Shown here: positions 55,421-57,468 of the stretch, piece after piece
Layout: every line of letters begins with the position of its first letter
Position numbering within the stretch: position 1 is the stretch's first letter
IMG/VR virus record: IMGVR_UViG_3300025810_000007
Span: 1-57,845 of that record
From: a virus
Taxonomy: Duplodnaviria; Caudoviricetes
Reading direction: 5' to 3' (one strand)
Length of the DNA: 57,845 nucleotides
Made by a program: the position numbers and the translations under genes
Notes under the pieces: model-generated
Database searches by the model: none
Told to the model about the DNA's origin: nothing
The model's input: the letters and a program-made list of their open reading frames with translations, nothing else

Positions 55421-55939
55421 TTACGCGTCTGCGAATGGTGTTACTATTGTACCTGATCCAATTAATAAAGAATTATGAACCATGTATGTAGCAGTATCAA
55501 TCGCTGTGAAAGATACTACACTACCAACGATTCCACCTTTTGTAGAACCATTCATAGTAATAACATCGTTAGATGCACCTGGTACGAAAGCTTTTTTCGA
55601 ACCATCGTCAACACCAATCATGATAGCACCTTTAAATTTATCAGTACCATCAGTTAAGATGTCCATATCAGTTGCAGCTGTTTCAACAAAAAATGTGAAA
55701 GTTGCACCGATATTATTTAGATTATTAAAGTCATTATCACCTGCTGATGCGCCATTTGCATTTACATTGATTGAAGGTAAAGTAAATTTACCGTCAGCAT
55801 CATTGCAAAGTAAAATTCTACCCGCATGTGCAGCAACTGTTAATGTTGTGTCAGCTGTTAAGCTAACAGTCATACCAGGACCTGTACTTGTAAAGCCATT
55901 TTTAGAAATGACTGGTCCTGAAAACGTAGTGTTTGCCAT
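55421..55939 (-). CDS. Structural protein (MANTTFSGPV family), possible head fibre/decoration
   Basis: 172 aa, TAGGAGG RBS, first gene after a near-consensus promoter. Confidence 0.6.
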   Translation of the reverse strand: MANTTFSGPVISKNGFTSTGPGMTVSLTADTTLTVAAHAGRILLCNDADGKFTLPSINVNANGASAGDNDFNNLNNIGATFTFFVETAATDMDILTDGTDKFKGAIMIGVDDGSKKAFVPGASNDVITMNGSTKGGIVGSVVSFTAIDTATYMVHNSLLIGSGTIVTPFADA

Positions 55940-55947
55940 AGTGTTAT

Positions 55948-56017
55948 CCTCCTAGTTATTTGAATATCGTCTCTAGGCCGTCGACTATACGCGTCGATAT
56001 TCAATTTAATGTATAGT
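55948..56017 (-). promoter_or_regulatory. Structured 5' leader (double-pseudoknot candidate)
   Basis: Three interleaved pairings: ACTATAC/GTATAGT, TTGAATATCG/CGATATTCAA, CCTAG/CTAGG (the last overlaps the RBS). Confidence 0.6.
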
Positions 56018-56023
56018 AAAGAT

Positions 56024-56052
56024 ATTATATGTTATTTTTTAGTAGAGTGCAA
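56024..56052 (-). promoter_or_regulatory. sigma70 promoter for the tail operon
   Basis: TTGCAC-17-TATAAT. Confidence 0.75.
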
Positions 56053-56095
56053 GAGAGCCTACGGTATTTATGCATTTCAGCGATGTAGCTTTTGA

Positions 56096-56305
56096 TTAAG
56101 TAGCTACAGAAACTTGTGGAGCGGCACCTTCAATAGTATTTTGCCTGTGAGCAATTTTAGCTTCTTCAAGCTTAATGTCAGTAATGACTTGTTTAACTTT
56201 GTCATCGATTCTGACCATTTCAAGAGTGTATCTACCATTAGACAGATGCTCCTGTTCCCACTTCAACTCCAAGGACCTTTTTTGTTTGTATAGGTCTTGT
56301 ATCAT
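56096..56305 (-). CDS. Hypothetical coiled-coil protein
   Basis: Start placed at 56305 by GAGGAGG RBS. Confidence 0.7.
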   Translation of the reverse strand: MIQDLYKQKRSLELKWEQEHLSNGRYTLEMVRIDDKVKQVITDIKLEEAKIAHRQNTIEGAAPQVSVAT

Positions 56306-56507
56306 CAACAACCTCCTCATAGGTTATTCTGTTTACTCGGTTATCATATGATATACCAAGATATTCCCAATTTATACTCTTTTCTCCCAGTTTGTCAAGG
56401 ATTGACTGTTCAAGAGAAATAGCAGTATCTTCTGCAAAAACATTAAATTTTGCATAGTGATCATATGCCCATATTTTTACTGTGAAGTTTTTCATGAATC
56501 CCACCAT
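56238..56507 (-). CDS. Hypothetical protein
   Basis: 89 aa, downstream of the capsid terminator. Confidence 0.65.
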   Translation of the reverse strand: MVGFMKNFTVKIWAYDHYAKFNVFAEDTAISLEQSILDKLGEKSINWEYLGISYDNRVNRITYEEVVDDTRPIQTKKVLGVEVGTGASV

Positions 56508-56518
56508 TTATGTTGTAA

Positions 56519-56544
56519 ATGGGGCCGTTTTAAGGCGGCCCCAT
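56519..56544 (-). terminator. Terminator after the major capsid gene
   Basis: ATGGGGCCG...CGGCCCCAT stem 12 nt after the stop; short U tract. Confidence 0.65.
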
Positions 56545-56556
56545 AAAATTTATTGA

Positions 56557-57468
56557 TTACGCACCTTCAACGCCGAAGATACCTCTAGGGTCAGATACAC
56601 CAAATGAGTATCTTTCTCTAGCTTTGTATCTTACGTTTCCAGTATCGAAGTCACCTTCCATTGCAGTTGTCAATGGAGCTCTGTTGAACATTTTCATTCC
56701 ATTTGGAATGTCTGTTAAGATATAAAACGCATCTGTATCAGTTAGGTAATTGTTCACTCTATAACCTTGAGGAATCATACCCATAGATACGATAGCATTG
56801 ATATCGTTATCAGCTGTTCCAGTTCTACCTTGAGACTTCATAAGTCTTTCAGCTGTGAATTGTAGCTCTGAAGGAATAATCATTTTTACTCCTCTTGCAG
56901 CAATTCTTAAACCTCTTTCGTCAGTCATTTGACCGATGTCGATCAAAGATTGCTCTAACGAAGTTTCGTTTAAGTCAGCTTGAGTAGTCAACGTGTTCTG
57001 GAAAGTTCCAGATACTGTTGGGTGAGATGTGTTAAACAAACTAACGCCGTCACCTGAATCAAAACCATCCGTTGAAGGAAGACCTTGAATTAAAGGTTCT
57101 ACCGCTTTTACTTGTTTAGCGTTACTCATAGATCTTGCTAAAGCTTTTGTATATCTAGACGCAAGTCTGTCATACAAGTTGTCCTCGATCGCTTCTTCAG
57201 TGATCGCGAATGCTAAAGCTACAGTCTCGTGAGTGTATCTCGCAGTGAAAGTTTCTTGTGCTTCATCAAATGATACACCAGATCCTTCACCTTTTACTTG
57301 TGCGTTTGCAAAGCCACTTAACATTACTTCCTCTTCGAAAGCTCTGTCAGATGCTTCTTCAGTATAAATTTCAGCATGCTGATTTTCATACCTTTTGTAT
57401 TCCAAGCCGAACAGTGCGTTCAAACCTGGCTCTAGTTCTTTAACTAGTTGTGATCGTGATATTGCCAT
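56557..57468 (-). CDS. Major capsid protein
   Basis: 303 aa; MAISRSQLVKELEPGLNALFG, ITEEAIED.LY, DG..LF...HP, RYKARERYSFG; AGGAG RBS. Confidence 0.88.
   Translation of the reverse strand: MAISRSQLVKELEPGLNALFGLEYKRYENQHAEIYTEEASDRAFEEEVMLSGFANAQVKGEGSGVSFDEAQETFTARYTHETVALAFAITEEAIEDNLYDRLASRYTKALARSMSNAKQVKAVEPLIQGLPSTDGFDSGDGVSLFNTSHPTVSGTFQNTLTTQADLNETSLEQSLIDIGQMTDERGLRIAARGVKMIIPSELQFTAERLMKSQGRTGTADNDINAIVSMGMIPQGYRVNNYLTDTDAFYILTDIPNGMKMFNRAPLTTAMEGDFDTGNVRYKARERYSFGVSDPRGIFGVEGA

Follow-up and report, generated by a model that had tools for sequence, protein, structure and literature searches.

The leader of bacteriophage T4 gene 32 opens with an H-type pseudoknot at the mRNA 5′ end, which a short A/U-rich stretch separates from the ribosome-binding site (RBS), and it is linked to mRNA stability as well as to translational control. 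In Escherichia coli, the nested double pseudoknot of the alpha operon and the pseudoknot of rpsO are operators bound by the ribosomal proteins S4 and S15, respectively, and the ompA leader is a 5′-terminal stabiliser stem-loop; exonuclease-resistant viral RNAs tuck their 5′ end into a pseudoknot. The SAM-II, SAM-V and preQ1-II/III riboswitches are also 5′ leader pseudoknots, their 3′ strand reaching the Shine-Dalgarno (SD) sequence, and SAM-V occurs in the SAR11 host lineage. Here, we describe a leader RNA in the complete 57,845-base virus record IMGVR_UViG_3300025810_000007 (the window), which belongs to an HTVC023P-type Pelagibacter phage. The element follows a promoter-like site and precedes the first start codon in a long block of virion genes, where an earlier reading of this DNA, made without database searches (the sequence-only reading), had placed it. 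We propose, with middling confidence, that it represents a new family of pseudoknotted 5′ leader RNAs of HTVC023P-type pelagiphages, which would act in cis by burying the 5′ end of the transcript and fixing the context of the RBS.

Like the T4 gene 32 leader, the pelagiphage element is predicted to be a phage mRNA leader pseudoknot at the extreme 5′ end with the RBS behind it. However, the two have no sequence or model similarity (no Rfam hit), and the pelagiphage leader has a central helix of 9–10 bp, a third helix that extends to the SD flank and, downstream, a gene that appears to encode a virion spike-like rather than a nucleic-acid-binding protein. The transcript is predicted to have its opening nucleotides base-paired, as in ompA-type stabilisers and exonuclease-resistant RNAs, but those are simple hairpins or eukaryotic-virus folds, whereas in the pelagiphage leader a hairpin farther downstream, with invariant junction letters, would take up the 5′ end in its apical loop. 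The S4 and S15 operators likewise consist of several helices, enclose the RBS region in a pseudoknot and govern initiation, yet they are unrelated in sequence and are bound by ribosomal proteins. From SAM-II, SAM-V and preQ1-II/III the leader differs in matching no Rfam 15 model, in a gene context that is not metabolic and in an SD overlap that is partial and lineage-specific. Its strand order is identical to that of the pistol ribozyme (hairpin stem, pseudoknot loop strand, stem, second stem strand, pseudoknot partner, second stem partner), but it has no P3 hairpin, conserves other letters and gave no pistol match in an Rfam scan at E-values up to 10. By analogy, the leader resembles T4 gene 32, stabiliser hairpins, the S4/S15 operators and H-type riboswitches in kind and appears to be a member of none of them; it would fit the generic description of a pseudoknotted cis-regulatory 5′ leader, and its crossing helices are kept by compensatory change.

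The expectation that no known Rfam family would match was borne out. Searched with the 4227 models of Rfam 15, the whole window gave no match at gathering thresholds, positions 55900–56100 gave a single chance hit at E-values up to 10 (10.1 bits against a gathering threshold of 55, on the other strand and unrelated), and the best sub-threshold hit in six related loci at E-values up to 1 was also unrelated (34.6 bits against 47). Full-text literature searches found no paper joining pelagiphage with pseudoknot, and papers on pelagiphages and riboswitches included, in their searchable portions, none on this leader. Published descriptions of the phage group (PMC9599517, main text; bioRxiv 10.1101/2019.12.14.876532) do not discuss promoters or noncoding elements in the searched text, the words ‘promoter’, ‘intergenic’, ‘terminator’ and ‘noncoding’ all being absent from the main text of the former. 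According to the searched part of the latter, the structural genes and gene regulation of this group are largely unannotated. The leader heads the message for a virion spike-like protein in a very abundant ocean phage group, and a covariation-backed RNA at the head of the virion-gene block offers a testable handle on late gene control in a host–phage system that is genetically difficult. It would join the catalogue of structured RNAs as a new family with an unusual architecture, in which a single hairpin captures the 5′ end with its apical loop and the RBS flank with its internal loop; should a stabilising or gating effect on the message be confirmed, RNA engineering could use it as a compact part.

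Interleaved helices and their covariation

Every string listed in the sequence-only reading, together with the order A-B-A′-C-B′-C′, is present on the minus strand from 56052 to 55937, and the observation of an interleaved-helix leader is confirmed. Helices A, B and C measure 7, 10 and 5 bp in the window, all of them perfect. Among 3000 dinucleotide-preserving shuffles of the 82-nt leader, 13 contained a perfect helix of at least 10 bp, and none contained a crossing helix pair totalling at least 17 bp or a three-helix chain totalling at least 22 bp. The nested, pseudoknot-free fold of the window leader is not stabler than that of the shuffles (minimum free energy −11.8 kcal/mol, z = −0.23), a comparison that is uninformative because the signal sits in crossing helices. 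The B hairpin and the A and C hairpins taken together have nearly equal energies, at −8.5 and −8.6 kcal/mol at 37 °C and −13.9 and −15.4 kcal/mol at 15 °C; this makes the two nested states isoenergetic, so that neither excludes the other on energy. Nothing in these values prevents all three helices from forming at once, as two kissing-loop hairpins, which is the arrangement we infer.

The nearest named relatives of the window are the Pelagibacter phages HTVC027P and HTVC023P and the uncultured phage 023Pt_psg01, and in all three a homologous gene follows the capsid gene region, with a leader of identical strand order ahead of it. Further relatives were taken from IMG/VR with the 172-aa protein encoded directly downstream as query (best 80 of 271 confirmed relatives) and then with a divergent member as query (best 80 of 507 relatives). 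Together with the three GenBank records, these gave 71 unique leaders and then 39 more, the number of unique leaders being 107 once 15 coding bases are included.

Five leader classes were assigned by eye. Class I, with the window and HTVC027P, has ACTATAC/GTATAGT and variants as A/A′ and CCTAG/CTAGG as helix C on the SD side, and class II, with HTVC023P, has CCTAG/CTAGG and GTATAG/CTATAC in these two places. The other three are uncultured: class III pairs CTAGG with CCTAG as A/A′ and has no C and a local SD hairpin, class IV uses CCGAG/CTCGG or CCAAG/CTTGG and a CTCC loop facing GGAG, and class V uses CTGAG/CTCAG or CTGGG/CCCAG and TTACGAA/TTCGTAA as C. The interleaved strand order is retained across every lineage examined. 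The outer helices are swapped between classes I and II (window; L003, L030, L031), class I helix A (CTATAC/GTATAG) being class II helix C with its strands exchanged and class I helix C being class II helix A.

Over 58 distinct cores, helix B is 88.8% paired, and all 10 of its pairs show two-sided changes. The 71 leaders contain 47 distinct B 9-mers, and the nine pairs nearest the closing end have 0, 1 and 2 mismatches in 60, 42 and 5 of the 107 leaders. A mini-helix of 2–3 bp flanking A′, helix E, covaries as well, with the pattern C-N-G ... C-N-G (C-G ... C-G in the window). Among 88 distinct sequences, the middle pair of E is U-A 56 times, G-C 22 times and C-G 10 times, with none unpaired; inside class V it alternates between U-A and C-G while the flanks are otherwise identical. 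Taken together, B and E reach a covariation score of 0.737 in the 58 cores against 0.242 for column shuffles, none of 500 attaining the observed value; sliding the partner by 1–3 columns, which keeps relatedness, left 27–40% paired and scores of 0.08–0.13. In 88 distinct cores, aligned with the covariance model and hence fitted to it, B is 88.6% paired and the joint score is 0.759 against 0.250, with slid controls at or below 0.153. An extension of B through GAC/AGAC (an A-A mismatch, C-G and U-A) was considered and rejected, its U-A position turning into G opposite A in the window’s lineage; helix E is preferred because it accounts for identical columns with three Watson-Crick pair types.

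The strand that folds can be read from helix B, where 29 G-U cells stand against 3 A-C cells, an excess expected only if the RNA of the sense strand folds. A core covariance model scores the window element at 59.9 bits (E-value 2e-11) on the minus strand, 55959–56005, against 15.3 bits on the plus strand at the same place.

Helix A is represented by 16 distinct complementary A/A′ sequence pairs in the 71 leaders, and all 71 can pair their 5′ region with the A′ slot in a helix of 5 bp or longer. Its signal per sequence is modest, a mean of 7.9% of upstream shuffles matching it and 35 of the 71 leaders lying at or below 5%. It is paired at 100% in class I and at 96.8% in the other classes, a figure that includes one or two rows off by one column and scored as unpaired, and double changes occur in 2 and 3 pairs, respectively. 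In a crossing-bracket test of A, B and C, the window’s lineage is 98.8% paired, with double changes in 12 pairs and no equal among 500 shuffles, and the other lineages are 95.4% paired. The interleaved helices that the sequence-only reading drew from one leader are evolutionarily maintained among its homologues, and A and B covary strongly. We consider it highly probable that the element is a conserved pseudoknotted RNA of the sense strand. Unpaired letters are also kept, namely AC after B, GA(C) after A′ and AGA before B′, about six of them invariant or nearly so.

The core model has a single hit in the window, where the next best site scores 19.3 bits, and one copy each in HTVC027P, HTVC023P, 023Pt_psg01 and one complete IMG/VR genome. 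Among the sources searched, exactly one hit at E-values up to 0.001 was found in 94 of 96 loci; the misses are L093, which has two mismatches in B, and L145. The leader always precedes a homologue of the 172-aa gene, in loci gathered via that gene and in public collections searched in this context only. The complete 62,424-nt IMG/VR contig G001 carries two leader-core copies at opposite ends (544–589 and 62222–62267), which probably reflect terminal redundancy of the assembly and not a true second copy.

Helix C, the promoter and the virion-gene block

Helix C is lineage-specific. Class I leaders keep it 99.3% paired and show one compensatory variant, CCTAA/TTAGG, in L019 and the near-copy L158, and classes II and V carry different complementary sequences; across lineages the helices from loop L3 to the pre-SD letters read CCTAG/CTAGG, CCTAA/TTAGG, GTATAG/CTATAC and TTACGAA/TTCGTAA. 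In the class V leaders L091, L097 and L138, a T inserted in C is matched by an A inserted in C′. C′ covers three of the six SD letters in the window, stops just short of the SD in class II and overlaps it in class V. In class III, a local hairpin that ends 0–1 nt before the ATG holds part of the SD, and its arms covary (ATTTCC/GGAAAT, ATTAAG/CTTAAT, ATTTTTC/GAAAAAT). A CTTG/CAAG helix between L1 and L3 in one lineage was rejected on inspection by eye: L066 has TTGCC, and some lineages are without either arm.

When B′ was set unavailable and the remainder folded in all 107 leaders, the median probability that the SD is unpaired was 0.52, against 0.60 for shuffles; it fell below the leader’s own null mean in 65 of the 107 and lay at or below the 5% level in 16. 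In this model some structure at the RBS would be usual, and strong masking does not appear to be a conserved property. The sequence-only reading had C/C′ close the second of two pseudoknots and mask the RBS. The helix is real in the window, with one compensatory variant inside the window’s lineage and different complementary counterparts in two other lineages, but it is not family-wide; the masking finds support in the three-letter overlap with the SD, but is partial and not conserved across the leaders folded. The TCGAC/GTCGA hairpin that was said to compete with B is present in the window and had to be given up as a conserved switch hairpin, as covariation is absent and 17 of 28 class I leaders have a break at its central pair. 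No riboswitch-type expression platform was found, whether as a conserved alternative pairing that hides the SD or as a terminator, and no U-run follows B′. An intrinsic terminator or attenuator was not found either: B is A/U-rich and is followed by ATAACTAGG, and a terminator scan of the sense strand lists nothing in the element. On the opposite strand, the scan lists a site at 55980–55998, which is the complement of the TCGAC/GTCGA stem.

Upstream of the helices, −10-like hexamers (at least 5/6 matches, A2 and T6 required) peak 6–9 nt ahead of helix A, with 44 hits in 88 unique upstream regions against 0–5 hits at any other distance up to 34 nt. Such a hexamer ends 4–10 nt ahead of A in 54 of 92 unique regions, and many of the remaining 38 have TATAAA-type boxes, which the filter excludes. 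The promoter-like site of the window is absent from a simple scan because its TTGCAC matches the −35 consensus at three of six positions. Just upstream of the −10, classes II, III and V have an intrinsic terminator, formed by a GC-rich hairpin and a T-run. From the clustering of the −10 hexamers and these upstream terminators, transcription is predicted to start at or within about 3 nt of helix A. A search of RNA data with L026, a 94%-identical relative of HTVC027P, matched 24 runs, all as assembled contigs; in four metatranscriptome runs the region is found in the RNA libraries, in contigs that end inside the variable leader and do not resolve strands, levels or starts. The main text of the HTVC027P infection transcriptome (PMC12753301), in its searched part, does not give an individual value for the homologous gene. 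Across class I loci, the block GGCTCTCTTGCACTCTACT (56040–56058, minus strand) is conserved well beyond the −35-like hexamer, which hints at a factor-binding site or a special promoter class.

Downstream of the leader, at least 18 tightly packed minus-strand open reading frames (ORFs) extend from 55939 to 36415, about 19 kb, and one of them matches a tail-protein PHROG. To speak of the first RBS of the tail operon, as the sequence-only reading did, is fair wording, although the first product may be a head spike. The 172-aa protein matched no Pfam or PHROG family. Its structural model, built from 26 sequences, is a beta fold with a mean pLDDT of 72.5. The best PDB match is the capsid spike of Pseudomonas phage Pa223 (9ny6_C), with an E-value of 2.3e-5 but a TM-score of 0.42, and tailspike and baseplate N-terminal domains come next at E-values of about 0.01; 207 viral models resemble it at E-values up to 1e-3, mostly unnamed and some named tail fibre. 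The predicted fold thus suggests a virion protein similar to capsid spikes or to the N-terminal part of tailspikes. Distant homologues occur in five Rhizobium phages. In Rhizobium phage RHph_N3_2, a 34%-identical homologue (1483–1914) lies 12 nt past the major capsid gene, without a leader. Its position next to the capsid gene fits a head-associated role of the protein family, and since the homologue in this one inspected Rhizobium phage is leaderless, the RNA seems specific to the pelagiphage lineage.

Proposed action and rival readings

We propose that the leader is transcribed by host RNA polymerase from the sigma-70-like promoter, and that its central hairpin, formed by B (9–10 bp) and capped by E (2–3 bp), would offer two docking sites. 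The apical loop A′ would pair with the first nucleotides of the transcript (A), and in the window’s lineage the internal loop C would pair with C′, a segment running into the SD, to give a kissing-hairpin or double-pseudoknot arrangement. The buried 5′ end would shield the message of the virion-gene block from 5′-end-dependent decay, and the RBS, kept in a fixed and partly paired context, would set the translation rate of the first gene, the whole acting in cis without requiring a ligand. The leader probably tunes both the keeping and the translation of the message for the spike-like protein; these stabilising and tuning effects are what we infer from the helices, conservation, strand, single copy and gene context observed above.

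Some points weigh against this account. Helices E and A may exclude each other rather than coexist. The invariant junction letters exceed the needs of a generic stabiliser hairpin and could instead form a site for a protein or ligand. The class I covariation of C comes from one variant and its near-copy, and family-wide SD pairing is weak and not clearly above chance. In a minority of relatives, namely L091, L097, L107, L054, L066 and L082, a terminator-like GC hairpin abuts helix A and leaves no space for a −10, and A may not be 5′-terminal in these loci. The start site is itself a prediction, as the RNA data consist of assembled contigs, which cannot show starts.

A broader proposal is that the leader is a new class of regulatory RNA switch responding to a protein or a ligand, with the invariant junction as a binding pocket that gates translation or read-through of the whole virion-assembly block. 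We hold this to be doubtful but worth keeping in mind; if true, the helices that capture the 5′ end and the SD flank would be two outputs of one sensor, and the gate would act in the most abundant known SAR11 phage group. In a protein-responsive translational operator, for which T4 gene 32, the E. coli S4 and S15 operators and Mu Com/mom provide parallels, a phage or host protein, possibly an unassembled product of the operon, would bind the pseudoknot junction and repress or activate the adjacent RBS. Such an operator would agree with junction letters that are invariant where helix sequences drift freely, with a single-copy element always directly ahead of the RBS of one gene, and with a helix that extends to the SD or to its immediate 5′ neighbours in the lineages of the window and HTVC023P, in class V and in most class III leaders. 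It is rather unlikely, however, as no candidate binding protein was identified, the 172-aa product, which matches no Pfam or PHROG family, has a spike- or fibre-like beta fold that is not a known RNA-binding fold, and the invariant letters may equally serve tertiary contacts. The sequence-only reading had favoured a switch with an unspecified ligand; the conserved cis-acting RNA structure stands, but nothing found bears on a ligand, and the target is a virion protein, which deprives a riboswitch of metabolic logic. A small molecule or ion that stabilises the pseudoknot and alters SD access would suit conserved junction letters beside the SD, and many riboswitches are known from SAR11 hosts (PMC2704228, in its searched part). 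Even so, we judge this improbable, given that no Rfam aptamer matched even at E-values up to 10, that the nearly invariant unpaired letters number about six and no more, that the SD-contacting part varies by lineage and masks weakly, that the regulated genes encode virion proteins and that the proposed competing hairpin is not conserved.

Other readings would move the action away from the RBS. The nascent pseudoknot might modify its own RNA polymerase to read through about 19 kb, as a cis-acting processive antitermination RNA of the kind known from HK022 put. The element does stand directly after the promoter at the head of at least 18 tightly packed genes, and its conserved core (A, B, E) is independent of the variable SD-contacting part. 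Yet terminator-like sites are at shuffle level (5 against 3.4 expected in a scan of 51–57.8 kb, the first ~7 kb of the block), no Rfam model matched, and the element always lies within about 6–15 nt of the SD and is often paired to it or to the adjacent 5′ letters, which antitermination would not need; we find this reading similarly hard to credit. A processing element, either an RNase III-type site in stacked B-E-A helices or a small self-cleaving ribozyme, could define a 5′ end on transcripts that read through from the capsid gene. Some lineages have a terminator-like hairpin and then the element with no visible promoter, so that transcripts may come from upstream; the stacked helices would total about 18–20 bp, the junction letters are conserved, and the strand order resembles a pistol ribozyme minus P3. 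Most lineages nevertheless have their own −10, no Rfam ribozyme matched at E-values up to 10 and the P3 hairpin is missing, which makes processing very improbable. A feature of the DNA itself, such as an inverted-repeat operator, or a chance pattern is scarcely tenable: the arms are inverted repeats in DNA and the CTAG cores are palindromic, but the complementarity is conserved where the arm sequences are not, G-U exceeds A-C by 29:3 in a strand-specific manner, no lineage examined departs from the interleaved order, and none of the 3000 shuffles reached the observed helices.

Feature coordinates and neighbouring elements

Table 1. Parts of the leader and its flanks in the window, listed in the direction of transcription.
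Feature	Position	Strand	Remarks
−35-like hexamer TTGCAC	56047..56052	−	Within block GGCTCTCTTGCACTCTACT, conserved in the window’s lineage
−10 hexamer TATAAT	56024..56029	−	17 nt past TTGCAC, 6 nt ahead of helix A
Helix A 5′ arm ACTATAC	56011..56017	−	Predicted at or up to about 3 nt from the transcript 5′ end
Loop L1 ATTAAA	56005..56010	−	A/U-rich; length 6–15 nt among relatives
Helix B 5′ arm TTGAATATCG	55995..56004	−	
Junction ACGC	55991..55994	−	A and C invariant; C55993 and G55992 are the 5′ side of mini-helix E
Helix A 3′ arm (A′) GTATAGT	55984..55990	−	Located in the apical loop of the B+E hairpin
CGACGG	55978..55983	−	C55983 and G55982 are the 3′ side of helix E; in GAC, G and A invariant and C at least 90% conserved
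Helix C 5′ arm CCTAG	55973..55977	−	In the internal loop of the central hairpin
AGA ahead of B′	55970..55972	−	Final A invariant; the A and G before it at least 90% conserved
Helix B 3′ arm (B′) CGATATTCAA	55960..55969	−	
Spacer ATAA	55956..55959	−	Between B′ and C′
Helix C 3′ arm (C′) CTAGG	55951..55955	−	Shares 3 nt with the SD start
Shine-Dalgarno AGGAGG	55948..55953	−	8 nt ahead of ATG
172-aa ORF	55421..55939	−	ATG 55939–55937; first gene of the tightly packed minus-strand block reaching 36415

Between the major capsid gene and the leader, the minus strand from 56507 to 56096 holds an 89-aa ORF (56238–56507) and a 74-aa ORF (56096–56320, PHROG 36395), which share 83 nt but are read in different frames. 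In 023Pt_psg01 the counterpart of the 74-aa ORF carries no annotation, and the HTVC027P annotation at this place is a 40-aa CDS (gp61) alone. A GC-rich 9-bp stem-loop, ATGGGGCCG ... CGGCCCCAT, lies directly 3′ of the major capsid gene on the minus strand (56519–56544), past the stop codon of that gene (near 56557) and ahead of the following ATG (56507). With no more than TT behind it on the sense strand, it does not qualify as a canonical terminator; it may act on the capsid message by attenuation or as a 3′ stabiliser.

Two further hairpins were observed upstream of the leader. A GTAGCT-(11–13 nt)-AGCTAC hairpin spans the stop of the 74-aa ORF at about 56081–56103 on the minus strand, just upstream of the promoter block; it is conserved in L001 (1893–1917) and L002 (1981–2003) and is followed by no T-run. 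A covarying GC hairpin is found about 20–60 nt ahead of the leader in L054, L066 and L082, and also in L065, and farther upstream in L063 and L153. Examples of its arms are GATGTGGG / CCCACATC and GATGCGGG / CCCGCATC; the hairpin has a conserved 14-nt loop, GGTTTCT(T/C)ACTCAA, and occupies the site that holds the terminator and promoter in other lineages.

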